Shown here: piece by piece, positions 730-63,646 of the stretch | Layout of the letters: every line of letters begins with the position of its first letter | Position numbering within the stretch: position 1 is the first letter of the stretch | From: an uncultured Candidatus Saccharibacteria bacterium | GTDB taxonomy: Bacteria; Patescibacteriota; Doudnabacteria; UBA920 | Direction: 5' to 3' | Assembly: GCA_964597895.1 (NCBI GenBank) | Contig: CAZQZS010000001.1 | Span: 183,178 to 247,177 of the forward strand | DNA length: 64,000 bases | Made by a program: the position numbers and the translations under genes | The notes under the pieces: generated by a model | Database searches by the model: none | Told to the model about the DNA's origin: nothing | What the model saw: only the letters and a program-made list of their open reading frames with translations

Positions 730-972
730 ATGACTACAGCAACTAAGCAACAAATGACCGGCACTGTTATTTCCAACAAGATGGATAAAACAGTTGTGGT
801 AAAAGTAGATTTGGTAAAGCGTCACCCAAAGTATCACAAGAGCTATACCAAGTCCTACCGCTACAAAGCGCATGACGCAGACAACAGCTGTGAAATCGGA
901 GACAAAGTGGTAATTGAATCCATTCGTCCGATGAGCCGCGACAAGCGTTTCGCTGTTATTAAGAAAGTTTAA
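730..972 (+). CDS. rpsQ: 30S ribosomal protein S17
   Basis: 80 aa; GTVISNKMDKTVVVKV motif typical of S17. Confidence 0.9.
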   Translation: MTTATKQQMTGTVISNKMDKTVVVKVDLVKRHPKYHKSYTKSYRYKAHDADNSCEIGDKVVIESIRPMSRDKRFAVIKKV

Positions 973-984
973 TTAATTTATTCT

Positions 985-1093
985 CCGAGTCGTCTGGTCT
1001 TGCCAGCGACGAGGAAACCTCCGGAAAGGGGAGGCAGACCGCGAAGCGGTCGTTGGAAGGGGAAAACCCCTTCTGGGTTGTCCCCTCCAAAGA
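985..1093 (+). repeat. Family-A structured intergenic repeat, short variant, ends 8 nt before rplN ATG
   Basis: ccgagtcgtctggtcttgccagcgacgaggaaacctccggaaaggggaggcagaccgcgaagcggtcgttggaaggggaaaaccccttctgggttgtcccctccaaaga; three conserved hairpins. Confidence 0.8.
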
Positions 1094-1101
1094 ATACACC
1101 T

Positions 1102-1473
1102 ATGTTACAAATTCGTTCTTACATTAAAATTGCAGACAATACCGGCGCCAAGGTCGTCAACGTGTTTAGCGTGAACGGAAAGAATAACCGTCGCTTTGCT
1201 CGCGTTGGGGATGTTGTCGCGGGGTCTGTTCGCCAGGCTGCACCAAACGGTTCAGTTAAGAAAGGCGATAAGATTTACGCTGTGATTGTTCGGACCCGCA
1301 AGGAAATCCGCCGCAAGGACGGATCTTACATCCGCTTTGATGAGAACGCAGGTGTATTAGTAGATAAAGAAAAGGGCGAGCCAAAAGGCACCCGTATCTT
1401 TGGTCCAATCCCTCGCGAAGTTCGCGACGCAGGATTTACCAAGATTGCCTCTCTGGCGCCGGAAGTAATATAA
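1102..1473 (+). CDS. rplN: 50S ribosomal protein L14 (track ORF starts at 1000 inside the repeat; true start ATG at 1102)
   Basis: MLQIRSYIKIADNTGAK... canonical L14 N-terminus. Confidence 0.93.
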   Translation: MLQIRSYIKIADNTGAKVVNVFSVNGKNNRRFARVGDVVAGSVRQAAPNGSVKKGDKIYAVIVRTRKEIRRKDGSYIRFDENAGVLVDKEKGEPKGTRIFGPIPREVRDAGFTKIASLAPEVI

Positions 1474-1477
1474 ATCT

Positions 1478-1804
1478 ATGACTCAAGTAAAGCTCAAAAT
1501 TAAGAAAGGCGACACCGTAAAGGTATTGTCTGGCAAGGACAAAGGCAAGACTGGCAAAGTATTGCGCGTGCTTCCTAGTGTCCACAAGGTAGTCGTAGAG
1601 AACGTAAATGTTCACACTAAGTATGAACGTCCTCGTGGCACCCGCCAGCGCACTCCGCAGCAAATTTCCTTTGCAAGCCCAATGCCTGTTTCTAAAGTTA
1701 TGCTGGTTGATTCAAATTCCGGCAAGCCGACCCGCGTTGGATATCAGATTTTAGAAAACGGAACCAAGCAGCGCATCGCCAAGAAGAGCGGAAAAGCAGT
1801 CTAA
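1478..1804 (+). CDS. rplX: 50S ribosomal protein L24
   Basis: KIKKGDTVKVLSGKDKGKTGKV KOW motif. Confidence 0.92.
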   Translation: MTQVKLKIKKGDTVKVLSGKDKGKTGKVLRVLPSVHKVVVENVNVHTKYERPRGTRQRTPQQISFASPMPVSKVMLVDSNSGKPTRVGYQILENGTKQRIAKKSGKAV

Positions 1805-1816
1805 TAATATTTATTT

Positions 1817-2356
1817 ATGAATCGTTTACAAGAACAATATAATAAAGAGATTGCTCCAGCCTTGAAGGAAAAGTTCGGCTATACCAATGTAATGGCTGTG
1901 CCGAAAATCAAGCAGATCAATATCAATATCGGCGTTGGTAAGTACCTCAAAGACAATCGCTTTATGGAATCAATCCGCAAAGACCTGACAGCTTTGTCTG
2001 GTCAGAAGCCGGTTGAAACCAAAGCGCGCAAGTCTATCGCTGGATTCAAGATTCGTGATGGGCAGGTTGTCGGAATGACAGTCACCCTCCGCGGTCAGCG
2101 CATGTATGATTTTCTGGACAAGCTGATCAGTATCGGTCTTCCACGCGTGAAGGACTTCCGTGGTGTATCTAAGAAAGGCTTTGACCGCCGTGGTAATTAC
2201 AACCTCGGACTCAAGGAACATCTTGTTTTCCCGGAAATTTCCCAAGACGCGCTAGAACACATCTTTGGTCTGCAAATCACTATTGTTACTGACGCAGGCA
2301 AAGACGAGCCAGCTTACGAGCTGCTCAAAGCAATGAAGTTTCCATTTAAAGACTAA
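1817..2356 (+). CDS. rplE: 50S ribosomal protein L5
   Basis: 179 aa, NVMAVPKIKQININIGVG, L5 family. Confidence 0.93.
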   Translation: MNRLQEQYNKEIAPALKEKFGYTNVMAVPKIKQININIGVGKYLKDNRFMESIRKDLTALSGQKPVETKARKSIAGFKIRDGQVVGMTVTLRGQRMYDFLDKLISIGLPRVKDFRGVSKKGFDRRGNYNLGLKEHLVFPEISQDALEHIFGLQITIVTDAGKDEPAYELLKAMKFPFKD

Positions 2357-2378
2357 TCATTAAGTAACTAAATTTTCG

Positions 2379-2478
2379 CTTGGGCTAAGCCTGAGCCGAC
2401 CCGACGTAGTGTAACGAGGTGGGTCGCAGCGAAGGCGCCAGTTAAGCGAAAATTTAAGAGGAGTACTTGGCGGAGGGC
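2379..2478 (+). other. Structured element inside an unusually long (175 nt) rplE-rpsZ spacer; closed by perfect 12-bp stem aaattttcgctt/aagcgaaaattt
   Basis: Inverted repeat at 2379-2390 and 2467-2478 enclosing GC-rich inner hairpins (cgaccc...gggtcg). Confidence 0.5.
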
Positions 2479-2531
2479 GATAGGAATTAGCATTAGCTGA
2501 TACCGATAGCCCGGCAGACAAGTACGACGAT

Positions 2532-2726
2532 ATGGCTAAAAAGAGTTTAATCGCAAAAGCAAATCGCAGTTTGAAGAAACCGAAGTTCTCTTCTCGAGTA
2601 ATTCGGCGCTGTTTGAAGTGCGGCCGTAAAGCTGCTTTCATGAGAGATTTCTCTTTGTGCCGTATTTGTTTTAGAGAATTAGCTAGCCGCGGCGAAATCC
2701 CTGGCGTAGTAAAGGCCTCCTGGTAA
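2532..2726 (+). CDS. rpsZ: 30S ribosomal protein S14 type Z (zinc-binding, 4 Cys)
   Basis: 64 aa with CLKCGRK...CRICFRE. Confidence 0.9.
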
Positions 2727-2730
2727 AACT

Positions 2731-3123
2731 ATGTATACAGATCCAATTTCCGACATGTTAACAAGAATCCGCAATGGGCTTGCAGCAGGCAAGCAGGATT
2801 TGGTAATGCCTTACTCTAAGTACAAGCACAGCTTGGCTAAAGTATTGTTAGAAGAAGGCTTTCTCTCTGGCGTCAATGAGTTGCCTGGCCGCATCAAAAT
2901 GCTCCAGATCAATTTGAAGTATGATAACGGCGGTAGCCCGGTAATTTCTGGCATCAAGCGCGTTAGCACTCCAGGACAGCGCATTTACATGCCTGTCGGC
3001 AAGATTCCTCGCACTAACGGCGGCTACGGCGTGACAGTTGTTTCCACATCCAAAGGTCTAGTTACAGATAAGCGCGCCCGCAAGGATCGCATCGGCGGAG
3101 AAGTAATTTGCCAAATTTGGTAA
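2731..3123 (+). CDS. rpsH: 30S ribosomal protein S8
   Basis: DPISDMLTRIRNG N-terminus. Confidence 0.93.
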   Translation: MYTDPISDMLTRIRNGLAAGKQDLVMPYSKYKHSLAKVLLEEGFLSGVNELPGRIKMLQINLKYDNGGSPVISGIKRVSTPGQRIYMPVGKIPRTNGGYGVTVVSTSKGLVTDKRARKDRIGGEVICQIW

Positions 3124-3138
3124 AGGTTAATCAAATAT

Positions 3139-3720
3139 ATGAGTAGAGTAGGTAAAAAACCAGTCATTCTTCCAAACGGCATTACCGCCGAATTGAAAGA
3201 CAACACCCTGACCATCAAAGGTGGTAAAGGCAGTTTAACTATGACCGTTCATCCAAAAGTTACAGTTGAAATTAAGGATAACGAAGTCTCTGTTGATGTA
3301 GCAAAGAAAGAAGACAAGCGCGAAAAAGCTCTATGGGGCTTGTCCCGCGCTTTGGTTCAAAATATGGTTGATGGTCTGGAAAAAGGTTACAGCAAGCAGC
3401 TTGATGTAGTCGGTGTTGGTTTTAAAGCTGAAGTCCGCGGCAAAGATCTGGTTCTCAACTTAGGTTTCTCTCACCCAATTGAATTCCCAATTCCAGAAGG
3501 CATTGAAGTGAAGGCCGAAAAGGATCCAGCTAAAGTTACTATTCAGCAATATCAGACTACTATTACATTGACCGGTATTGATAAGCAGTTGGTTGGCCAG
3601 GTCGCAGCCAACATTCGCGAATTAAAGAAGCCAGAACCTTATAAGGGCAAGGGTATTCGTTATAGCGACGAAAACATCCTGCGCAAGGCTGGTAAAGTCG
3701 TTAAGGCGGTAGGTAAATAA
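3139..3720 (+). CDS. rplF: 50S ribosomal protein L6
   Basis: [15 protein letters not shown]... two-domain L6. Confidence 0.93.
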
Positions 3721-3721
3721 T

Positions 3722-4075
3722 ATGAACAAGATTCAGCATAAACAACTCAAGCATCAGCTCCGCAAGGGACGCGTGCGCAGCGTAGTTTCTGGGACCACTA
3801 GCCGGCCACGCCTGTCAGTGTTCCGCTCTAATGCTCACATCTCAGCCCAGATTATTGATGACGAAACCGGCAAGACCTTAGCATCCTCTTCTACTTCTAT
3901 TTTGAAAGCTTCTGGTAATAAAGTAGAGCAAGCAGTAGCAGTTGGTAAGGATATCGCTGCTAAAGCACAAGCTGCTGGCGTAAAGGCTGTCGTATTTGAC
4001 CGCGGCGGCTATAAGTATCATGGCCGCGTTAAAGCAATCGCTGATGGCGCTCGCGAAGCTGGCCTGCAATTTTAA
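3722..4075 (+). CDS. rplR: 50S ribosomal protein L18
   Basis: [20 protein letters not shown] motif. Confidence 0.92.
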
Positions 4076-4093
4076 TTCTAATTCTCAATAACT

Positions 4094-4594
4094 ATGGAAA
4101 AGAGATCTCGCAAACCGAATAATCGCACTCCGCAGCAGCCTCGTGAATTTGATCAGAAGGTTGTGGAAGTTAAGCGCGTCACCCGCGTAGTTGCTGGTGG
4201 TAAGCGCATGCGTTTCCGCGCTTTGGTGGTAATTGGTGACCACAAAGGCAAAGTTGGTATTGGTTTGAAAAAGGGGATGGACGTTACTGAGAGCGTCAAC
4301 AAAGCCGTGAATGCTGCAAAGAAGAACATGATTACTGTACCGATTGTTAACGATACGATTCCTCACGAAGTTAAAGTAAAGTACAAGTCCAGCAAACTCT
4401 TGATGATGCCTGCTCGTCCTGGTACTGGTGTAATTGCCGGTGGCGCTGTCCGTAGCGTTTTGGACATGGCTGGTATTAAGAACGTAATCAGCAAAATGGT
4501 TGGGTCTAACAATAAGACTAACAACGTTCGCGCTGCTTACGAAGCGTTCAAGATGATGCGCAGTAAAGAAGATATCTTGGCAGCCCGCAAATAA
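4094..4594 (+). CDS. rpsE: 30S ribosomal protein S5
   Basis: VTRVVAGGKRMRFRALVVIGD...; S5 dsRBD and C-terminal domain. Confidence 0.93.
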   Translation: MEKRSRKPNNRTPQQPREFDQKVVEVKRVTRVVAGGKRMRFRALVVIGDHKGKVGIGLKKGMDVTESVNKAVNAAKKNMITVPIVNDTIPHEVKVKYKSSKLLMMPARPGTGVIAGGAVRSVLDMAGIKNVISKMVGSNNKTNNVRAAYEAFKMMRSKEDILAARK

Positions 4595-4606
4595 CTAATT
4601 TAAACC

Positions 4607-4756
4607 CCGAGTCGTCTGGGTCTCCCAGCGACGAGGAAACTTAAGGAAAGGGGAGGCAGACCGCGAAGCGGTCGTTGGAAAGGGTCCGGGTTAAGTCCAA
4701 ACTTGATTTGGACTGCTAACCGGTGAAAACCCCTTCTGGGTTTTCCCCTCCAAAGA
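4607..4756 (+). repeat. Family-A structured intergenic repeat, long variant, occupying the position where rpmD (L30) normally sits; ends 5 nt before rplO ATG
   Basis: Near-identical to 1-131 over ~130 nt. Confidence 0.8.
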
Positions 4757-4761
4757 GATAT

Positions 4762-5196
4762 ATGATCAAGCTACACGATTTAAAACGTCATCCAAAATCA
4801 ACCAAGCGCCGCAAAGTTGTCGGTCGCGGTGTTGGTAGTGGACACGGTACCTATTCCACCCGCGGTGCCAAAGGTCAAAAGTCCCGCACCGGGCACTCCA
4901 AAACCCCAGCTCGCTTTGAAGGTGGCCGTCAACCGTTGATTCGCCAAGTGCCAAAGAGCCGCGGTTTTAAGAGCTTGCATGAAAGCGCGATGGCAGTGAG
5001 CGTTACTGCTCTCAATAAATTCGCCGACGGCGATGTTGTAACCATCGCAACCCTAAAGAAGGCAGGACTTATCCCAAGCACGGTTAATAGAGTCAAATTG
5101 CTCAAGGGTGATCTTAAGCGCAAGCTTACAGTCGGCGTCCCTGCGTCTGCGACAGCAAAAGAAGCTATCGAAAAAGCAGGCGGCAGCATTAAATAA
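4762..5196 (+). CDS. rplO: 50S ribosomal protein L15 (track ORF 4723 starts inside the repeat; true start 4762)
   Basis: MIKLHDLKRHPKSTKRRKVVGRGVGSGHG. Confidence 0.92.
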   Translation: MIKLHDLKRHPKSTKRRKVVGRGVGSGHGTYSTRGAKGQKSRTGHSKTPARFEGGRQPLIRQVPKSRGFKSLHESAMAVSVTALNKFADGDVVTIATLKKAGLIPSTVNRVKLLKGDLKRKLTVGVPASATAKEAIEKAGGSIK

Positions 5197-5241
5197 TAAA
5201 TTTTAAGATGCCATCTTTGCCTGTGACTAAGATGGCATCTA

Positions 5242-6534
5242 TTGTATAATACCAATATGAATAAACTCAGTTTAATTTGGAAAACTAAGGATTTGCGCTG
5301 GAAAATCACCATGGTGCTGATTCTCTTGCTGATGACCCGCGTTTTGGCGCACATCCCAATCCCTGGGGTTAGCGTAGAAGGTTTGCGGACTTTCTTTGAA
5401 AGCAACCAATTCTTGAATTTGTTGAATATTTTCTCTGGTGGTGGGCTGAGCAATTTTTCTATTGCTTTACTTGGTGTCGGTCCTTACATTACCGCATCTA
5501 TCATCATGCAACTCTTGGCCATGATCGTACCTTCACTGCAGGAATTGCAAAAGGAAAGCGGAGAAGCTGGTCGTACAAAAATCAACCAGTACACAAGATT
5601 CCTAACTATCCCATTAGCGATTTTGTCCGGATTCGGTACTATTCGCTTGCTGCAAAGCCAGGGCGGAGCAGAACTGCTCGGCGTGTTCACTCCTTTCCAG
5701 TGGTTTTTGACTTTGCTCGCGGTTACAGCCGGAACCATGCTAGTCATGTGGATCGGTGAAATTATTTCTGAGTACGGCATTGGTAATGGTATCTCTTTGG
5801 TAATTTTCGCAGGTATCGTTGCGCAGCTGCCAGCCAGCGCAGGCTCTTTGATTGAACTGTATGATCCAACTCAATTGCCGACAATTTTAGGTTTTGCTGC
5901 TGTCTCACTGCTGGTTATTGCTGGAGTGGTCTATGTAACTGAAGCTCAGCGGAATATTCCTGTATCTTATGCTAAACGCATGCAGGGTGAACGCCAGGTC
6001 GGCGGAGTCAGTTCTCATCTGCCTTTGCGTTTAAACCAAGCCGGTGTAATTCCAATCATCTTTGCCATTTCCTTGTTGCTGTTCCCAGCGATTATCGCCC
6101 AGTTCTTTGTGAACGCCAAAACTCCTTTGGTTGCAGAATGGGCGCAGAAAGCTATTGACTTCACTAATAATCAAGGGCTGTGGTACGGCGTGGCTTACTT
6201 CGTATTAGTGGTATTGTTCACCTATTTCTACACCAATATCGTGGTTAATCCTGATGATGTTTCCAAGAATATGCAGCGCAGCGGGGGCTTTATTCCTGGT
6301 ATTCGCCCGGGAAATCAGACAGCTGATTATCTTTATAAAGTGCTAAACCGCATTACCTTGCCTGGTTCGTTATTCCTTGGCACGATTGCTATTCTGCCGT
6401 TCTTGATGCAGACTTGGACAGGCACTCAAGCCTTAACATTCGGCGGTACCGGATTGCTTATTGTTGTATCGGTTGTCATTGAAAGTATCAAACAGGTTGA
6501 GGCACAACTTACAATGCACGATTACCAGAAATAA
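5242..6534 (+). CDS. secY: Preprotein translocase subunit SecY (start may be 5257)
   Basis: 430 aa, 10 TM segments, conserved plug and gate regions, operon position after L15. Confidence 0.93.
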   Translation: MYNTNMNKLSLIWKTKDLRWKITMVLILLLMTRVLAHIPIPGVSVEGLRTFFESNQFLNLLNIFSGGGLSNFSIALLGVGPYITASIIMQLLAMIVPSLQELQKESGEAGRTKINQYTRFLTIPLAILSGFGTIRLLQSQGGAELLGVFTPFQWFLTLLAVTAGTMLVMWIGEIISEYGIGNGISLVIFAGIVAQLPASAGSLIELYDPTQLPTILGFAAVSLLVIAGVVYVTEAQRNIPVSYAKRMQGERQVGGVSSHLPLRLNQAGVIPIIFAISLLLFPAIIAQFFVNAKTPLVAEWAQKAIDFTNNQGLWYGVAYFVLVVLFTYFYTNIVVNPDDVSKNMQRSGGFIPGIRPGNQTADYLYKVLNRITLPGSLFLGTIAILPFLMQTWTGTQALTFGGTGLLIVVSVVIESIKQVEAQLTMHDYQK

Positions 6535-6556
6535 AATTATTTTTGATTGCAAATTT

Positions 6557-6582
6557 AAACCCCCGCTGCGCGGGGGTTTTTG
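6557..6582 (+). terminator. Rho-independent terminator after secY
   Basis: cccccgctgcgcggggg followed by tttttg. Confidence 0.8.
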
Positions 6583-6589
6583 TATGTTC

Positions 6590-6672
6590 GACCGAGCTTG
6601 CCGCTCAAGCCGATGGGCTACGTTTCGCTTTCCGAAACTGGGCCCAGAGCCTTTCGCTTAGCAAGCTCGGTC
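6590..6672 (+). other. 83-nt structured element closed by perfect 12-bp stem gaccgagcttgc/gcaagctcggtc with nested inner hairpins
   Basis: Inverted repeats seen directly; inner gtttcg-ctttc-cgaaac and gggc/gccc pairs. Confidence 0.5.
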
Positions 6673-6705
6673 TCTAAAAGGGAGTTAGTAGATTCATGTG
6701 TTTTA

Positions 6706-6714
6706 TGGTATAAT
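6706..6714 (+). promoter_or_regulatory. Extended -10 promoter TGgTATAAT; ATG 9 nt downstream (leaderless transcript predicted)
   Basis: tggtataat at 6706-6714, ATG at 6724. Confidence 0.55.
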
Positions 6715-6723
6715 TTGGTCACT

Positions 6724-7047
6724 ATGGAACAAGAAAATAAAGAATTTCCTCAACATTTGGAACAACCCAATCATGAGTTTGCCGCACCAGAAAACTCTCC
6801 CATGCAAGAAACCGAAGGGTTCATTGTTGAGCTGCAGGTCACTGAAGCGGAAAAGCAAGAAATAGCCGAACAGCTGGCAGAACAGCAGCCGGTTGCTCCT
6901 ACCATACAGGAAGTAAAGGCAGCTGCAGTAGAACGCGCCCAGCAACAGGAAGAAATTGATAAAGCTCACGAGCATTTGCAAAAAGATAATGACATAGAAA
7001 CCAGCGGCGATGCCTATGAAATGATCAACGACTTAATGAATAACTAA
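6724..7047 (+). CDS. Small acidic hypothetical protein (108 aa; track ORF 6580 is an upstream extension)
   Basis: Start placed after the promoter; E/Q-rich, low complexity. Confidence 0.5.
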   Translation: MEQENKEFPQHLEQPNHEFAAPENSPMQETEGFIVELQVTEAEKQEIAEQLAEQQPVAPTIQEVKAAAVERAQQQEEIDKAHEHLQKDNDIETSGDAYEMINDLMNN

Positions 7048-7091
7048 GCTTCAGTCCGCAAATTACTTAAAACAAAAAGCAAAATTACCAA

Positions 7092-9650
7092 ATGTTATTT
7101 GGATTTGATATCAGCACGATACTTATAGCCACACTACTACTAGCGGTTTTAGTAGTAGTCTTTGTATTGGCGGCAATGTATTACATTCACAGATTTTGGT
7201 ATTACAAGCATGTGATTTTGCCTCGCACCAAAAATTGGGTGTTCTTGGAAATTCAAATGCCCAAAGACAATAGCGACGACAAAGAACGAACCTTGCGCGA
7301 TGAGGAAAAGAAAAAACTGATTGCTGTTGCAGAGCAGCTCTACACAACTTTGTCTGGCATAAGCCATGAGAACTGGTTTTGGCAGCCCAAGGATTACATC
7401 AGTTTTGAGATTGCCTGTTCGGCAAAAAAGATTTCCTTTTATATTAACTGTCCGAAGCATCTCCAGGATTTAATCGAAAAGCAGATACAAGCGCAGTATC
7501 CGCACGCATTTATTGAAGAGATTAAAGGCTATAACCCTTTTCCTAAAGCCGGCGAGCTGGCAGCCGCAGAGCTGCAGCTTAACAAGCCGTATGTTTACCC
7601 TTTGCGAACTTACGAAGACATGGAGTCTGATCCGCTTAATGCGCTGACTAACGCCATGTCAAAGTTATCAGAACAAGATGGCGCAGCTATTCAGATGATT
7701 TTGTATCCAGCCGGAACTCACTGGCAGCTCAAACCTCGTCACATGGCCTTGGAAATTCAGCAAGGCAAAAATCCAAATACCGTAGCGCAAAGCGCTAGCG
7801 GCCGGTTTGCGCGTGAGGTCGGCACTGGACTTAAGACCAGCGTTATGGGCAGCAGCAAGCCCAGCGCCGATCAAGCTCAGATGCGCACTGATTTAAGTGG
7901 CACTTATTCCGCTATCAACTTAACCCCGATGCAGCAGGAAATGGTAAAGCGCTTTGAAGAGAAAGCCAGCCGCCCAGGGTTCTTTACGAATATTAGAATT
8001 GTGACAGCTTCAGAAGTGCCGGGTCAGGCGCGCTTGCATCTGCAAAACATTACGGCGTCATTTTTGGAATACAATATGGCTCCGTTTAATGGTTTTCGCA
8101 TTAAGTCGCGCAAGAAGAAACGGATCGTCAAAGATTATATTTTCCGCATTTACCGCCGCTACGGGCGTAAAATGATTCTGAATACCGAAGAGTTGGCCAG
8201 TATCTGGCATTTACCAACTCCATACCTGGAAACGCCAAATATCAAATGGCTGTTGTCTAAAAAGGCTCCGGCACCAGTGAATTTAGCCGAAGAAGGCTTA
8301 CTGCTCGGCCGCAACGTTTACCGCGGGGTGGAAACGAAGATTCATATCGCCAAAGAAGATCGCCGGCGCCACATGTATATTCTGGGCCGAACCGGTGTTG
8401 GTAAAACCGAAATCATGAAGTATATGGCCGTTCAAGATATCGCCAACGGAGAAGGACTTTGTATTATTGATCCGCACGGCGATTTTATAGAAGACGTTTT
8501 GCCTCATATTCCTAAGCACCGTGCCGAGGATGTAATTTTATTTGACCCTTCAGATACGGAGCGACCACTGGGACTGAACATGCTTGAGGTGAATAGGGAA
8601 GAGCAAAAGGATTTTGCGGTTCAGGAGATGATTTCTATTTTTTACAAGCTGGTAACCGACCCGGCCATGCTTGGTCCAATGTTTGAGCATAACATGCGTA
8701 ACGCAATGCTCACGCTCATGGCCGACAAGGAGCATCCGGGCACGATTGTAGAGATTCCTAGAATCTTTACAGACATGGAATTTCAAAAGTACAAAGTTTC
8801 CAAAGTTGCCGATCCAGTCGTTCGCGCGTTTTGGGAAAAAGAAATGGCTAAAACTTCTGACTTCCATAAATCAGAAATGCTCGGTTACTTGATTTCTAAA
8901 GTTGGCAGGTTCGTAGAGAATAGCATGATGCGCAATATTGTCGGGCAGGCGAAAAGTTCGTTCAACTTCCGCGACATCATGGATAGCCAAAAAATCTTGC
9001 TCGTGAATCTGGCTAAGGGCAAGATTGGGGAGATGAATGCCAAGCTGCTAGGTTTGATTATTGTCTCTAAGATTCAAATGGCGGCATTGAGCAGAGCTGA
9101 TCAGCCCGAAGATCAGCGCCGAGATTTTTACTTGTACGTTGATGAGTTTCAGAATTTCATCACTGATGCTTTTTCGTCAATCTTAAGCGAAGCGCGCAAA
9201 TACAAACTCAACTTAATTATTGCCCATCAATTTTTGGCGCAGCTTCAGCAAGCAGCAGGCGCGCAGGGCGCGGCCAGCCAAGACTTGCGCGATGCGGTAT
9301 TCGGCAATACTGGCTCCATGTTAAGTTTTCGCATCGGTGTTGAGGATGCCGAAGTAATGGCCAAAGAGTTTGCGCCAACTTTTAACGAGTTTGATTTGCT
9401 CAACATAGAACGCTATAACGCGTTTGTGAAGCTGATGGTGAATGGTTCTGCTTCTAAGCCGTTCAATATGTCGACTTATCCTTTACCCAAAGCCATAGCC
9501 GAACAAAAGCAGACGGCTGAGGCAATCAGACAGCTTTCTAGGCTAAAATATGGACGAGCTCAAGCCGAGGTAGAAGCGGGGATTTTACGGGCTAGTCAGA
9601 TTGCAGATATGATGGCAGCCGGGACAGCCACTACCGAAAAAACCTTATAA
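7092..9650 (+). CDS. Membrane-anchored P-loop ATPase, type IV coupling protein-like (VirD4/TraG family), with unusually long 400-aa pre-Walker-A region
   Basis: N-terminal TM helix; Walker A LGRTGVGKTE; DPHGDF; Walker B YLYVDEFQNF; SEARKYKLNLIIAHQFLAQL resembles T4CP RKYG/Q..QL C-terminal motif. Confidence 0.65.
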   Translation: MLFGFDISTILIATLLLAVLVVVFVLAAMYYIHRFWYYKHVILPRTKNWVFLEIQMPKDNSDDKERTLRDEEKKKLIAVAEQLYTTLSGISHENWFWQPKDYISFEIACSAKKISFYINCPKHLQDLIEKQIQAQYPHAFIEEIKGYNPFPKAGELAAAELQLNKPYVYPLRTYEDMESDPLNALTNAMSKLSEQDGAAIQMILYPAGTHWQLKPRHMALEIQQGKNPNTVAQSASGRFAREVGTGLKTSVMGSSKPSADQAQMRTDLSGTYSAINLTPMQQEMVKRFEEKASRPGFFTNIRIVTASEVPGQARLHLQNITASFLEYNMAPFNGFRIKSRKKKRIVKDYIFRIYRRYGRKMILNTEELASIWHLPTPYLETPNIKWLLSKKAPAPVNLAEEGLLLGRNVYRGVETKIHIAKEDRRRHMYILGRTGVGKTEIMKYMAVQDIANGEGLCIIDPHGDFIEDVLPHIPKHRAEDVILFDPSDTERPLGLNMLEVNREEQKDFAVQEMISIFYKLVTDPAMLGPMFEHNMRNAMLTLMADKEHPGTIVEIPRIFTDMEFQKYKVSKVADPVVRAFWEKEMAKTSDFHKSEMLGYLISKVGRFVENSMMRNIVGQAKSSFNFRDIMDSQKILLVNLAKGKIGEMNAKLLGLIIVSKIQMAALSRADQPEDQRRDFYLYVDEFQNFITDAFSSILSEARKYKLNLIIAHQFLAQLQQAAGAQGAASQDLRDAVFGNTGSMLSFRIGVEDAEVMAKEFAPTFNEFDLLNIERYNAFVKLMVNGSASKPFNMSTYPLPKAIAEQKQTAEAIRQLSRLKYGRAQAEVEAGILRASQIADMMAAGTATTEKTL

Positions 9651-14781: not shown

Positions 14782-14798
14782 ATTAAAATTTTTAATTC

Positions 14799-14934
14799 TT
14801 TGGCCAATTTCTTTGTCGTCAGCTCCGCTACTCGTTCACCGTAACTTTCATTACGACTCACTCGTTGCTCGCTGACTCCTGGCTCGCGATGGTCGGGCTT
14901 TGCCCGACCAAGCTCGTGTCGAACTTGACTCAAA
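14799..14934 (+). repeat. Family-C structured intergenic repeat, copy 1, with extra ggtcgggc-ttt-gcccgacc hairpin
   Basis: Shares ttggccaatttctttgtc...ctcgttcaccgtaacttNcattacgRctcactcgKtgctc...gaacttgRctcaaa with 17303-17400. Confidence 0.8.
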
Positions 14935-14975
14935 TAATTAAAAATTAAGAATTTAATTAGAAATTAAGAATTTCG

Positions 14976-17288: not shown

Positions 17289-17302
17289 ACTATGTTGTAA
17301 AT

Positions 17303-17400
17303 TTTGGCCAATTTCTTTGTCACCAGTTCCGCTCCTCGTTCACCGTAACTTTTATTACGGCTCACTCGGTGCTCACTGGTTTCGCGAACTTGGCTCAAAA
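17303..17400 (+). repeat. Family-C structured intergenic repeat, copy 2
   Basis: See 14799-14934; conserved hairpin cgtaa-cttttat-ttacg at 17344-17359. Confidence 0.8.
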
Positions 17401-17450
17401 TTTCCAACATTAATTCCAATGAATTTTAAATAAAAAATTAATTAAAACTT

Positions 17451-22810: not shown

Positions 22811-22817
22811 ATCAATT

Positions 22818-22978
22818 TCGCTCATTTGGCTTCAGTCGGAAGTAAATTCCAACCTTCAGCCAAATATCGCCCCTTTGGGGTTTAACCAATTGCTTCGTTA
22901 TTTTCCTCGGAACCCTGTCATCGTAGCTTTACTACGACTCCAGAGTTCCTCGGAAAATGCCTCGCACTTGGCTAAACG
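22818..22978 (+). repeat. Family-B structured intergenic repeat, copy 1 (contains terminator-like gcccctttggggttt and conserved hairpin cgtag-cttta-ctacg)
   Basis: Shares ~80 nt near-identity with 33974-34040 and a core related to family C. Confidence 0.8.
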
Positions 22979-23008
22979 AAAACGATTCATGTAAAAAGTA
23001 AGCATATA

Positions 23009-24946: not shown

Positions 24947-25051
24947 AGGATATAATCGTGGTTATGCACTTGTCACTAGTCCTCGACCAGCAACTGGTCT
25001 GCGGAATAGTTCCAAGCGCATAACCACCATTTAGAAGGTTGTAATAAAAGT

Positions 25052-33973: not shown

Positions 33974-34136
33974 TCGCTCATTTGGCTTAAGTTGTAAGTA
34001 AATTCCAACTTTCAGCCAAATATCGCCCCTTCGGGGTTTAGTCAATTTCATTGTCATCGGCTTCCGTTACTCATTCATCGTACTATTAAGTACGACTCAT
34101 TCGTTACTCAGCCGATTCCTCGAGCTTGACTAAACG
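33974..34136 (+). repeat. Family-B structured intergenic repeat, copy 2 (gccccttcggggttt; hairpin cgtac-tattaa-gtacg)
   Basis: See 22818-22978. Confidence 0.8.
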
Positions 34137-34163
34137 CCAGTGTTCTAGGTATTTAAGTAGATT

Positions 34164-39099: not shown

Positions 39100-39200
39100 C
39101 TACCCACTTCGGAGGTAGTAAGCTAGCGCCAGACCGCCAAAGCCTAACGTGAGTTAGGCGAAAGGCGGGCGAGAGCGCTGCCGAAGAAGTGGGTGGCTAA
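39100..39200 (+). other. ~100-nt rod-like structured leader ending ~8 nt before the mreB ATG
   Basis: cccacttcgg/ccgaag(aag)tggg outer stem; gcgc/gcgc, ccgcc/ggcgg inner stems; apical gcctaac-GTGA-gttaggc. Confidence 0.5.
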
Positions 39201-49326: not shown

Positions 49327-49431
49327 TGGAGAGGGCGCCGGGATTTGAACCCGGACCTTGGCCTAAGTTGGCCTGCCTCTGGGGAGGTACAGTTTTCAAG
49401 ACTGTTGCTTTTTCCATTAAGCTACGCCCCC
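49327..49431 (-). tRNA. tRNA-Ser(UGA)-like, 105 nt, with abnormal 34-nt variable region
   Basis: Acceptor GGGGGCG/CGCCCTC, D arm GCTT-AATGGAAA-AAGC, anticodon arm ACAGT-CTTGAAA-ACTGT, T arm CCGGG-TTCAAAT-CCCGG, encoded CCA. Confidence 0.7.
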
Positions 49432-50012: not shown

Positions 50013-50855
50013 CTATTGGTGAACCAGCCGATTTAAAAGCACCAAGAAAATCGGAACAGGAGAGCGAGAGTGAGTCAGACGAAAGCTAAACTCGTTTAAG
50101 TAGTCCTGCAAATATTTGGGCGAGACTCTATGATACGTGCCATCGATAGACCGCTTGATTTGGCTAAAGAAGCCCTCAACGCTGTTGGTGTGAGTCCAGC
50201 CATTAACATACTGCTTACTAGAGTGGTTCACAGAGCTATGACCATAACCCTTTAGGCTCTTGCGGTTATACACCGAAGCACCGTCAGTCATAATCGCACT
50301 GCCGGCCTCAACCTCGTTATGGATTAACGGAATGGTATTGAACTGCTTTATTTTCTGCATTACCACAGCTTTAGCACTACCGCCACGCTGAACCAAACCT
50401 AAAACCTTTGGAACACCCGCCCTAGAGCGTGGTGTTTTCATTTTCTCCAAGTAGGCTTCATCCACCTCAACCACTCCGCTTAGTTTTAAGTCGCTCAAAT
50501 CCATAAGGGAGCGGATTTGTTTAGCGATACGCCAAGCAGTTTTGTAGGTTACACCCAAGTCTCTTTCCAACTCTTTGCCGGAAACTCCATTACGAGAGTT
50601 GGCGAACTTGTAAATGGCGAAGAACCACAAGACTAAATCTGTTTCTGATTTATGGAAGATAGTCCCAGCAGTGGGGTGAATTTGATAAGCACAGCTAGCG
50701 CAAGCCCACGCTTTGCGTTTCTTAATCCTGTGCCAACTAGACTTCCCACAGTTAGGGCAAGGGAACTGATAGCCATAACGATACTTAAAGATATACTCCA
50801 AGCAAGCGTCATTATCTGGGAAGTCTTTTTTGAAGTCTTTTATTGTGTATTTCAT
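50013..50855 (-). mobile_element. IS1595-family (ISXO2-like) transposase gene; IS boundaries not determined
   Basis: N-terminal Zn-ribbon CPNCG...CASC; DDE region with DEAY, TDGASVY, HSSVNHS..YVNG.HTNSVEGFFSQIKR. Confidence 0.85.
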
Positions 50856-51148
50856 ACATTAAAGTTAATTATATTTTGAGAGTAACTCCATACTTACTTG
50901 TTGTCAAGGGATAGTCGGGCGGTTAAGTGTGCATAACTAGGGAGCTATTTCGGAGAATCATCAAAACCTTTTTAATTAAGAGGGTTTTTTTAGTTTTGAG
51001 GTGAGGTATATAAATTGAAAAATGGGTCAGAGTGGGGTATACTGACTTCAAGTGGAATGGAGTGGGGAAAAGTGGGGATAAGTGGGTGGATAAGTGGACA
51101 ACTCAAATCATTCAGATTTCTGAAACTAACAGTAATAGACGCGAAGAC

Positions 51149-51246
51149 ATCTGGCTTTGCCAGGGTCTGAGCACCCAAGGAAAGGGGAGGCAGGAGCGAA
51201 GCGACGTTGGAAGGAGAAAACCCTTCCCGGGTTTTCTCCTCCAAAC
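51149..51246 (+). repeat. Family-A structured repeat, divergent copy, ending at the mraZ ATG
   Basis: tctggctttgccag...ggaaaggggaggcag...ttggaaggagaaaaccc...gggttttctcctccaaa; compensatory changes in hairpins. Confidence 0.7.
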
Positions 51247-51684
51247 TGTCTTATGTTTATCGGTGAATTTCAAGCATCAATTGATGATAAGGCCCGCGTG
51301 GCAATCCCAGCCAAGTTCCGCAGTTCTTTGAAATCAAAGGTCGTAGTAACCAGAGGGTTGGATAACTCCTTGGTTCTGTACACATTAGACGAATGGAAGA
51401 AGCTTGCCGAGAAGGTGGCTAGTCTCCCAATTTCTACTGCCAACACGCGCGCTTTTTCTCGTCTGATGCTTGCAGGAGCAATGGATTGCGATATTGATAA
51501 GCAGGGTCGCATTGTCATTCCAGGCTACCTCAAGGAATTTGCCAAGATTTCCAAAAAGCTTGTTTTCGCCGGTCTTTATAACCGCGTGGAAATTTGGAGC
51601 GACGAAGCTTGGCAAAAATACAAAACACAAACAGAAAAACAAAGCAATCAAATTGCCGAACAATTGGGTGATCTAGGAGTATAA
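51247..51684 (+). CDS. mraZ: Transcriptional regulator MraZ (track ORF 51157 starts inside repeat)
   Basis: MFIGEFQASIDDKARVAIPAKFR and second SpoVT/AbrB-like repeat. Confidence 0.9.
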   Translation, partial: CLMFIGEFQASIDDKARVAIPAKFRSSLKSKVVVTRGLDNSLVLYTLDEWKKLAEKVASLPISTANTRAFSRLMLAGAMDCDIDKQGRIVIPGYLKEFAKISKKLVFAGLYNRVEIWSDEAWQKYKTQTEKQSNQIAEQLGDLGV

Positions 51685-58545: not shown

Positions 58546-58620
58546 TGGCTGGGGTACCAGGATTCGAACCTGGGAATGAGCGGACCAAAACCGCTTGCCT
58601 TACCACTTGGCTATACCCCA
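58546..58620 (-). tRNA. tRNA-Gln(UUG)
   Basis: Cloverleaf: acceptor TGGGGTA/TACCCCA, anticodon arm AGCGG-TTTTGGT-CCGCT, T arm CCAGG-TTCGAAT-CCTGG, G73+CCA. Confidence 0.85.
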
Positions 58621-61851: not shown

Positions 61852-62946
61852 ATGAAACAGGGAAGTAAGACAACTAAAAAGCGCGTACTTATGGCACTTT
61901 CTGGCGGAATTGATTCTGCTGTTTCGGCGTATTTGCTACAAAAAGCCGGTTACCAAGTTGAAGCCGCATTTATGAAAAACTGGTCTTCAACTGCTGGTTT
62001 AAAATATTCAGATTGTCCTTGGCTGATTGATCGCCAAGATGCGTTGCGCGTGGCTGCTCATTTGGGTATCCCTATGCACACAGTGAACTACGAAAAAGAA
62101 TATAAAAAGAACGTCATGGATTATTTCTTTAAGGAATATAAAGCTGGCCGCACCCCAAACCCTGATGTAATGTGTAACAAAGAAATCAAATTCAAAGTTT
62201 TATACAACTGGGCTATGAAGAATGGTTTTGATTATGTCGCTACCGGCCATTACGCACAAGTCAAAAAAATAAAAAATAAGGCAGGGGAGAACTACCAGCT
62301 TGTTCGCAGCAAGGATGAATTCAAGGACCAGACTTACTTCATTTACAATATTAAGCAATTACAACTCCCCCATTTGCTCTTCCCTATCGGCTCAAAGAAA
62401 AAATCCGAAGTTCGGGCTATGGCCAAGAAGCTTAAACTGCCGAATGCAGATAAAAAAGAAAGCATGGGGCTCTGTTTTGTAGGTCAGATTCGCTTAAAGG
62501 ATTTTTTGTCGCAAAAAATTAAACCAAAAATCGGGCCGGTTGTTACCCAAGATGGACAAAAAATTGGCGAGCACCAAGGTTTGCCGTATTACACTATTGG
62601 CCAGCGCCAGGGAATTAACATTGGCAAGGGTGGTCCATGGTATGTTGTCAGTAAGAATCTTAAGACCAACACTTTGGTTGTCACTAATGATGCAAATGAC
62701 AAGGCTTTACTAACCCAAGAAGTTGAAATTCACAGTGTGAATTGGATTACCAAACCAAAAAGTTTTCCAGCTAAGCTGGAGGGACGTTATCGTCATCAAG
62801 GAAAACTCGAAAAGCTCACAATTCAACTCAAAAGCCGCGATCATTATCTGGTTAAGTTCGCCAAGCCGCAATCAGCCGTCGCTAGCGGTCAAAGTTTGGT
62901 ACTATACGACAAAAAAGTCTGCGTGGGCGGCGGAGTAATTGCCTAA
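61852..62946 (+). CDS. mnmA: tRNA-specific 2-thiouridylase MnmA
   Basis: PP-loop ALSGGIDSAV. Confidence 0.92.
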   Translation: MKQGSKTTKKRVLMALSGGIDSAVSAYLLQKAGYQVEAAFMKNWSSTAGLKYSDCPWLIDRQDALRVAAHLGIPMHTVNYEKEYKKNVMDYFFKEYKAGRTPNPDVMCNKEIKFKVLYNWAMKNGFDYVATGHYAQVKKIKNKAGENYQLVRSKDEFKDQTYFIYNIKQLQLPHLLFPIGSKKKSEVRAMAKKLKLPNADKKESMGLCFVGQIRLKDFLSQKIKPKIGPVVTQDGQKIGEHQGLPYYTIGQRQGINIGKGGPWYVVSKNLKTNTLVVTNDANDKALLTQEVEIHSVNWITKPKSFPAKLEGRYRHQGKLEKLTIQLKSRDHYLVKFAKPQSAVASGQSLVLYDKKVCVGGGVIA

Positions 62947-63094: not shown

Positions 63095-63646
63095 TTAATC
63101 CAATCGCACAGAATTTACCAGTCCTGCGAGTTCTGGTAAATATTCGCCAGCATCGGTGCCATCAAAGACGTAATAATACTCACCCACTTTGGTTTGGTAG
63201 ATAAGGTTATTAAAATTTGTGGTTAGGTAACCGTTGGCAGTAGTATAATTGGCTTGGGATAATGTTTGCGGTGCAGCTGGGGCGATTTTGCTTAGATAGA
63301 TTTTGATTTGCGCTCTAGGATTGGAGCGGGTCACGGACACAACGTATAGATCAGGGACATCGTCGTTCCAGGTAACGTTCCATCCTTGAGGTCGCAAGAA
63401 AGTCAGTGGGTAGTCTTGGTCTTTAAATTCGTTCCATCTCGTAGTATCTGCAGCTTCTACCTGCCTAAAACTTGTTTGGGTTGGTTGATTGTCAGGTTGT
63501 GCTTGGATGGGTTGAGTGGCCGCCGGAGCTTCTACATATAAGCGGTTGATGCGGCTCAATACCAAAGCGGCATACACTGTGCAGAGTACGATAATGGTCA
63601 GAAGCACAAAGCTTCTACTGGGGGTTGAGTGATGAGTCAACTTCAT
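63095..63646 (-). CDS. Hypothetical membrane-anchored protein (183 aa)
   Basis: N-terminal TM anchor. Confidence 0.5.
   Translation of the reverse strand: MKLTHHSTPSRSFVLLTIIVLCTVYAALVLSRINRLYVEAPAATQPIQAQPDNQPTQTSFRQVEAADTTRWNEFKDQDYPLTFLRPQGWNVTWNDDVPDLYVVSVTRSNPRAQIKIYLSKIAPAAPQTLSQANYTTANGYLTTNFNNLIYQTKVGEYYYVFDGTDAGEYLPELAGLVNSVRLD

Follow-up and report, generated by a model that had tools for sequence, protein, structure and literature searches.

A strain-variable, hairpin-forming insertion between rplE and rpsZ in a Patescibacteria ribosomal-protein operon

What are the 175 nucleotides (nt) that separate rplE from rpsZ in the ribosomal-protein operon of an uncultured Patescibacteria bacterium? 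The window analysed here is a 64,000-nt stretch of contig CAZQZS010000001.1 (assembly GCA_964597895.1, positions 183,178 to 247,177 of the forward strand), the 5' end of which is a ribosomal-protein gene cluster from which rpmD is absent. The entire spacer at 2357-2531 (+ strand), here called element X, lies between rplE (1817-2356, +; ribosomal protein L5, 179 amino acids), an open reading frame (ORF) on whose product PF00281/PF00673 are called in related contigs, and rpsZ (2532-2726, +; zinc-ribbon type S14, 64 amino acids; PF00253 Ribosomal_S14, 5.7e-21). A first-pass annotation made from the sequence alone gave the spacer length correctly, as rplE ends at 2356 and rpsZ starts at 2532, and offered two readings, an autoregulatory leader for S14 or S8 or an inserted element. 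Our comparison of strains supports the second of these: element X is a presence/absence polymorphism within one species, and it stands in place of an ancestral 9-nt junction, TTAATTATT.

Presence and absence of element X among strains and relatives

The nearest public genomes share at most 80% L5 identity with the window and are metagenome-assembled genomes labelled Candidatus Saccharibacteria, Doudnabacteria or Patescibacteria. Conspecific contigs from other samples were recovered by exact-protein look-up, and the closest lineages were represented in the set of relatives by one genome per species. Five contigs from other samples reach the junction, and we assign these samples to conspecific strains because their non-ribosomal contigs share 97-99.7% identity with the window. 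Two of the five lack element X. Over the 1058 nt that lead to the junction, L165 (SRR21707664) matches the window at 99.8% identity, and over the 2030 nt beyond it at 99.0%; the values for L167 (SRR12451724) are 99.5% before and 98.4% after the junction. In both, only 9 nt (TTAATTATT) stand between the rplE stop codon and the rpsZ ATG, and in the rplE 3' end and in rpsH they agree with the window at 99.3-100%. The remaining three contigs carry element X. L166 (SRR35430748) and L168 (SRR28758106), which are 99.5-99.9% identical to the window, contain its first 43 nt and then end, and L182 (SRR15237806) starts at 2426 inside the first of its two hairpins (hp1) and continues through the second (hp2) into rpsZ. 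Element X is therefore carried by four of the six sampled alleles, counting the window and three of the five contigs. Additional look-ups were negative for rplR and for the gene at 61852 and gave window-internal DNA only for the gene at 63098, and a metagenome contig scan yielded nothing nearer than 74% L5 identity.

The same 9-nt junction is present in a more distant outgroup (L161), and the spacer measures 6-9 nt in the five closest lineages (S14 87-95% identical), from which we conclude that the empty site is ancestral. Since conspecific strains exist without it, element X is also dispensable. Alignment of this spacer across related genomes had been proposed in the first-pass annotation as a check on the leader reading; that comparison was run, and the spacer is absent in close relatives with near-identical flanks, the outcome that the annotation itself had named as refuting a leader for S14 or S8.

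Such a leader, bound by S14 or S8, would control translation of rpsZ-rpsH. Structured leaders are common in ribosomal-protein operons, as in the E. coli spc operon with S8, and the E. coli S8 autoregulatory site lies at the start of rplE, not before the S14 gene. Similar to that site, element X is highly structured RNA in the spc gene cluster, directly upstream of rpsZ/rpsH. Unlike it and other ribosomal-protein leaders, element X is not conserved, is dispensable and matches no model. It is missing from strains with identical S8 and near-identical S14 as well as from all of the nearest lineages, no homologous sequence or structure was found at the junction in about 45 Patescibacteria relatives, and no Rfam ribosomal-protein leader matched. 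A paper on 20 new ribosomal-protein leader candidates has no rpsN/rpsZ term, S14 occurring there only as a contact of L31. We therefore regard an autoregulatory leader as very improbable. The insertion polymorphism, the empty ancestral site and the occupation of the same junction by other elements (below) all support an inserted element.

Palindromes can give rise to misassembly, and for this reason we considered whether element X could be an assembly artefact or chimera. Its 5' part (L166 and L168) and its 3' part (L182) were recovered in three independent assemblies of other samples, and the junctions to rplE and rpsZ in these contigs are the same as in the window, which makes an artefact barely credible.

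The window's rpsZ differs from that of all other conspecific contigs by 15 single-nucleotide polymorphisms (SNPs) at 2575-2717 (7.7%, 3 amino-acid changes), and its S14 protein equals that of the more distant L161 and L162. These SNPs mark a short recombination tract that the window strain alone has. Linkage of element X to this divergent tract was considered and rejected, as L182 has element X together with the common rpsZ haplotype; the two segregate independently.

Hairpin anatomy and signal content of element X

The spacer had been described as structured, and both its folding energy and its inverted repeat lie far beyond those of shuffled sequences. The + strand has a minimum free energy of -69.9 kcal/mol (z -5.85; none of 200 shuffles as good) and the - strand one of -58.5 kcal/mol (z -4.78), while the longest perfect inverted repeat is 13 bp, a length reached in none of 1000 shuffles (maximum 10). 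The G+C content of element X is 50%, versus 45% for the window.

Read from its 5' end on the + strand, element X begins with a linker, TCATTAAGTAACT (2357-2369), which lies between the rplE stop codon and hp1 and is the same in L166 and L168. It is followed by hp1 (2370-2455), an imperfect palindrome of 86 nt bounded by perfect terminal inverted repeats of 12 bp, AAATTTTCGCTT/AAGCGAAAATTT, which folds alone to -39.5 kcal/mol (z -4.45). The perfect 12-bp stem of the first-pass annotation is real, but it had been placed at 2379-2390/2467-2478 and is in fact located at 2369-2381/2444-2456 if counted as 13 bp, or at 2370-2381/2444-2455 if counted as 12 bp; the domain that it closes is a hairpin of 88 nt rather than one of about 100 nt. 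The apical stem-loop CGACCC-N18-GGGTCG (2397-2426), an inverted repeat with arms at 2397-2402 and 2421-2426, is present as described and forms part of the minimum free energy structure. Between the two hairpins lies a Shine-Dalgarno (SD)-like purine tract, AAGAGGAG (2456-2463), the presence of which was also confirmed; it is the same in L182, and the unpaired probability across 2457-2462 (AGAGGA) is 0.43-0.82, so that the linker is mostly single-stranded. The second hairpin was missing from the earlier description. This hairpin, hp2 (2463-2525, 63 nt), has the base GTACTTG/CAAGTAC (2463-2469 with 2519-2525), contains a tandem ATTAGC ATTAGC plus a 17-nt degenerate direct repeat, and folds alone to -28.0 kcal/mol as sense (z -5.98) and to -21.0 kcal/mol as antisense strand. 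Six nucleotides, GACGAT (2526-2531), lead from the base of hp2 to the rpsZ start codon.

Element X, hp1 and hp2 each fold better as sense than as antisense strand. Between the window and L182, hp2 shows 7 differences (2485, 2486, 2493, 2499, 2502, 2513 and 2515), with about 1% divergence elsewhere. The central helix holds four of the seven, and pairing is nowhere disrupted (A.A to G.U, A-U to G.U, U.G to U-A). The hp2 of L182 is slightly more stable than that of the window in the sense orientation (-30.3 kcal/mol; antisense -23.1 kcal/mol). This comparison consists of two sequences, and the covariation within it carries no statistical weight.

No coding or known RNA content was detected in element X. 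Rfam 15 gave no match in element X at the gathering threshold and none at E<=10 over 900-7100, and ARAGORN found no tRNA in element X; the 16S rRNA gene is absent from the 64-kb window. Two minus-strand ORFs, 2360-2641 and 2368-2493, were rejected as coding candidates, as neither has a Pfam match. Two open minus-strand frames across hp1 were also used as bait for other hp1 copies against a collection of 5.8 billion proteins, and no candidates were retrieved. The SD-like tract is followed by a 7-codon TTG mini-ORF (2467-2490, MAEGDRN*) whose frame L182 keeps open; at this length it has no value as evidence. No sigma-70 promoter-like or intrinsic terminator-like site was found within 2357-2531, and the sequences that follow the hairpins (AAGAGG after hp1, GACGAT after hp2) are not the T run of a terminator.

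Because it has no promoter or terminator, element X is presumably co-transcribed and would form two stable stem-loops in the operon mRNA. Termination-reinitiation coupling requires overlaps or very short distances (PMC10666635). Strains with element X must therefore have lost it between rplE and rpsZ, the 175 nt, on this account, having abolished it. The rpsZ gene would then be initiated de novo, possibly aided by the exposed AGAGGAG, which hp2 would fold to within about 6 nt of the AUG. As had been reported, rpsZ has no SD, with none within 20 nt of its ATG; this is the norm here, as 0 ribosomal-protein genes and 13 of the window's 59 genes have one.

In phage T4 genes 38 and 25, an SD is split from the AUG by a stable hairpin whose folding brings the spacing back close to the optimum, and the T4 hairpins are much shorter than hp2. 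Similar to these genes, element X has an exposed SD-like tract, a hairpin (hp2, -28 kcal/mol) and 6 nt to the AUG, within the geometric range of about 5-9 nt. The likeness is purely geometric, and most genes of this operon need no SD.

This arrangement raises the possibility that the inserted element X now works as an intercistronic mRNA module, with stems for RNase III-type processing or stabilisation that would divide the operon transcript, and an SD-hp2 ribosome-binding cassette for rpsZ. Such a role would agree with the better folding of the sense strand, with the fact that every stem substitution in hp2 between the window and L182 keeps or creates a pair, with the exposure of AGAGGA at a distance that hp2 leaves at 6 nt from the AUG, with the use of canonical SDs at those 13 genes, and with the status of element X as the majority allele in the sample. 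It sits poorly with the dispensability of element X in conspecific strains, its absence in the nearest lineages and the two-sequence basis of the hp2 covariation, and AAGAGGAG may be incidental, since ribosomal-protein genes here are normally without an SD. Additionally, insertions that keep the essential S14 expressed would survive, so that an SD-hp2 arrangement could arise without regulation. We consider an mRNA module unlikely, and two further points that bear on it are given with the spacers of relatives below.

Copy number of hp1 and origin of the insertion

The ends of the three partial contigs provide indirect evidence on the copy number of hp1. Logan assemblies are de Bruijn graphs with k=31 in which all 31-mers are distinct, and a contig abutting a repeat node therefore overlaps that node by exactly 30 nt. 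This rule was checked at repeat A, a second element of this operon (below): the A copies have a common segment from 4645 onwards and L182 stops at 4674, and what L166 and L168 have in common with other A copies is exactly their first 30 nt. As an exception, L183 ends at 4612 for another reason. At element X, L166 and L168 end at 2399, placing the graph junction at 2370, and L182 starts at 2426, placing it at 2455. In three independent assemblies, the junctions deduced in this way thus fall precisely on the outermost bases of the perfect 12-bp inverted repeat, and we consider it likely that hp1 (86 nt) is multi-copy. Inversion of the hp1 apex was rejected as a cause of the contig breaks, as the ends that it would predict, 2402 and 2421, differ from those observed (2399 and 2426).

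The same junction is occupied independently by other elements. In L162, L163 and L164, a sister lineage of 80-87% nucleotide identity, the rplE-rpsZ spacer is 137 nt long; an ancestral-type TTAAATTATT is kept next to the ATG, and the rest includes a 106-nt member of the palindromic family D1 (931-1036 in L162). Family D1 has copies in the window at 14798-14939, 17301-17403, 22878-22982 and 34034-34138 (all +), with D5 at 22818-22901 and 33974-34057 listed alongside them. D1 copies are imperfect palindromes of about 105 nt with compensatory arm-to-arm differences between copies, and they fold 10-18 kcal/mol better as antisense than as sense strand. In five conspecific contigs, the D1 copy at 22811-23008 is fixed. 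At the rplE-rpsZ junction of more distant relatives, unrelated spacers of 62-112 nt are found, most of them hairpin-forming.

Element X could not be assigned to any of these families. An nhmmer profile of five D1 copies recovered all D1 at E<=1e-20 and did not match element X even at E<=10, and a covariance model (R1) of element A retrieved A copies only in cmsearch at E<=1. When element X was aligned to 12 other structured spacers by Smith-Waterman with shuffles, the best p among 24 tests was about 0.035, short of significance. No part of element X resembles neighbouring sequence.

The best explanation, in which we place moderate confidence, is that element X is composite inserted non-coding DNA whose hp1 resembles the miniature inverted-repeat transposable elements known as MITEs, or ERIC, and that it is dispensable and not a ribosomal-protein leader. 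Non-coding DNA was inserted into the ancestrally 9-nt rplE-rpsZ junction, and the insert is made up of the hp1 palindromic repeat, a short purine linker and then the locus-specific hp2. In this insert hp1 would behave like a multi-copy mobile palindromic repeat, and element X would belong to a class of rapidly turning-over, hairpin-forming intergenic elements that repeatedly land in the rplE-rpsZ junction of this lineage.

We would like to note that a number of observations weigh against this explanation. No second hp1 copy was found in the 64-kb window by blastn-short, in 192 fetched loci (1.04 Mb) by blastn or in viral contigs by three exact-pattern scans, and searches for copies of element X returned the same locus in L166, L168 and L182 only. 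Alternatively, the contigs could end where they do because of a variant bubble that covers exactly 2400-2425 in each of the three samples, which would be less parsimonious. No clear target-site duplication is present: the flanks (...AAGTAACT, hp1, AAGAGGAG...) contain no direct repeat, and the pair T2369/A2456 is ambiguous with the inverted repeat itself. The insertion is also unclean, with 7 nt of the ancestral spacer replaced rather than duplicated. No transposase with matching ends was identified; an IS1595-family DDE transposase is encoded at 50013-50855 (-; PF12762 1e-33 plus a zinc ribbon), directly upstream of element A's mraZ copy, and the terminal repeats of this IS1595-family element were not definable, none resembling hp1. 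Carriage by four of six alleles indicates that element X is not obviously deleterious, and the pair-preserving changes in hp2, together with better folding of the sense strand, hint at some selection on the RNA.

Some of these observations would also suit a non-mobile origin, in which element X arose through local slippage or template switching, or was acquired as an allele from another lineage by homologous recombination through the flanking genes. No other copy was found, ancestral bases were replaced without a target-site duplication, hp2 contains the tandem ATTAGC ATTAGC and the 17-nt degenerate direct repeat, and recombination is active at the site, as seen in the private 15-SNP rpsZ tract and in the occurrence of element X with both rpsZ haplotypes. 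We nevertheless judge this origin improbable: the graph junctions fall exactly at the ends of the hp1 inverted repeat in three samples, pointing to a repeat with other contexts, a true multi-copy palindromic family (D1) has inserted at the same junction in the sister lineage, and element X shows no resemblance in any part to the sequence around it.

Element X most resembles ERIC, Correia or other MITE-like intergenic repeats that form long imperfect palindromes, without a firm place in any named family. ERIC/IRU in enterobacteria and Correia/NEMIS in Neisseria are non-coding imperfect palindromes of about 70-150 nt found in transcribed intergenic regions within operons. Their presence varies between strains and they form long RNA hairpins, and Correia elements are known for RNase III cleavage and promoter activity. 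Similarly, element X is non-coding, palindromic, intergenic within an operon and strain-variable, with long RNA hairpins predicted. In contrast to these families, with which it has no sequence relationship, it resides in a Patescibacteria host, is a composite of two hairpins and a linker, and shows no evident duplication of TA or another target. The resemblance to MITEs lies in the small size of hp1, its non-coding, intergenic nature and its perfect 12-13-bp terminal inverted repeats, and in the insertion polymorphism of element X at an orthologous site; it differs in lacking a target-site duplication and a parent insertion sequence with matching ends, and a multi-copy status of hp1 is deduced from the assembly graph.

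REP/BIME elements are described in PMC3733652 as palindromes of 20-40 bp with a GTAG/CGTC tag, present in high copy number and mobilised by RAYT. As with element X, they are palindromic and extragenic, often lie just after stop codons in operons and have a proposed role in mRNA stabilisation (PMC3733652). However, hp1 does not qualify as a REP, being 86 nt long, starting 5' with AAATTTT (AAATTTTCGC) and occurring as a single copy in the window, and no RAYT gene was seen. Families A and D1 are likewise structured intergenic elements of the same genome that vary between strains or species, but neither profile matches element X, and D1 folds better as antisense whereas element X folds better as sense strand.

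Other palindromic elements in the operon, in relatives and in the window

The gene order of the operon is rplP (137-541), rpmC, rpsQ (730-972), rplN (about 1102-1473), rplX, rplE, rpsZ, rpsH, rplF, rplR, rpsE (4094-4594), rplO (4762-5196) and secY (5242-6534). The first-pass annotation held that genes elsewhere in this operon are separated by 1-20 nt, which is contradicted by the spacers rpsQ-rplN (129 nt), rpsE-rplO (167 nt) and rplO-secY (45 nt), and by at least 136 structured nt before rplP.

Several of these spacers hold element A, with copies of 105-155 nt that are 87-93% identical at 1-136, 985-1098, 4607-4761 and 51145-51252 in the window and at 6281-6438 in L001, one of the five closest lineages. 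Element A always ends 10-14 nt 5' of a start codon, namely those of rplP, rplN, rplO and mraZ in the window and of secY in L001. It contains an invariant GGAAAGGGGAGG plus a GCGAAGC mini-hairpin and can adopt two mutually exclusive folds, either with a long-range GGGGAGG:CCCCUCC pairing or with a terminal hairpin, GGNGAAAACCC/GGGUUUUCNCC, the latter showing a compensatory change in the mraZ copy. Element A has no Rfam match and is strain-variable, and it could be an undescribed 5' leader or switch. Upstream of the mraZ leader, at 51040-51100, are tandem units of about 8 nt of the type (A/G)AGTGGGG, which resemble the short tandem intergenic repeats of relatives (e.g. CCAACTA-type arrays in L008).

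Turnover of such elements is visible among closely related strains. The rpsQ-rplN spacer of L166 and L168 is occupied by a different 66-nt element, and among strains of about 99.8% identity some have and others lack a 43-nt hairpin nested in the element that precedes rplP.

In many relatives (L010-L014, L016-L019, L084, L086, L087, L090 and L100), most or all operon spacers are 75-130 nt long, and in three genomes whose spacers were folded (L012, L090 and L016) most of them are long hairpins. The spacers of one of these, L012, consist of units with a period of about 7 nt (e.g. CTAGAAG, CTTAGTG), with a few families per genome. Across relatives, 105 of 145 spacers fold better as antisense strand, with 492 G.U pairs in the antisense versus 251 in the sense orientation. 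In the literature on the candidate phyla radiation (CPR)/Patescibacteria, no description of intergenic hairpin or palindromic repeats was found; the nearest analogues found are the intergenic heptamer repeats of Beggiatoaceae (PMC4679880) and the hairpin-forming repeats of organelle genomes. These spacers bear on the mRNA module in both directions: nearly every ribosomal-protein spacer in relatives is a hairpin of about 90 nt, a regular pattern that would suit such a module, and the better antisense folding of relatives' hairpins speaks against the whole class being under selection as mRNA.

It is conceivable, although we think it distinctly unlikely, that the intercistronic hairpins of Patescibacteria ribosomal-protein operons, about 90-100 nt each in many relatives, element X and element A included, constitute an undescribed system with dedicated propagation, made up of obligatory processing or insulation modules, some with their own ribosome-binding cassette, rather than selfish junk. 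Palindromic elements are tolerated, and repeatedly acquired, even in the most conserved operon of a streamlined (~1 Mb-class) Patescibacteria genome, and these acquisitions fall between essential genes that are normally translationally coupled, with turnover among strains that are 97-99.9% identical. For annotation, a long, very stable structure in a ribosomal-protein operon needs a check in close relatives before it is labelled a regulatory leader. Strains with and without element X in public metagenomes offer a natural experiment on hairpins and ribosomal-protein stoichiometry. The hairpin in nearly every spacer and the antisense folding bias were not found in the literature searched and may merit separate study.

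A number of further features of the window were recorded. A clear intrinsic terminator follows secY (6557-6579), and directly after it lies an 87-nt hairpin (6588-6674) the base of which is a perfect stem of 12 bp (GACCGAGCTTGC/GCAAGCTCGGTC). In place of the usual adk-map-infA there are an acidic ORF of 155 amino acids and a VirD4/TrwB-like coupling ATPase (7092-9650). Unique long intergenic hairpins are found at 24955-25032 (-38 kcal/mol) and 39100-39192 (-50 kcal/mol), the latter being GC-rich with GNRA-type loops and folding better as sense strand, as in element X. An exact 32-nt duplicate of one end of a tRNA-Gln gene (58546-58620, -) occurs 111 nt apart (58592-58623/58703-58734) and may be a scar left by integration at the tRNA. 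Lastly, Rfam matches a full-length tRNA at 49330-49431 (-) with 62 bits, spanning 102 nt, where ARAGORN makes no call; a tRNA that contains an insertion or has a long extra arm is a possible explanation.

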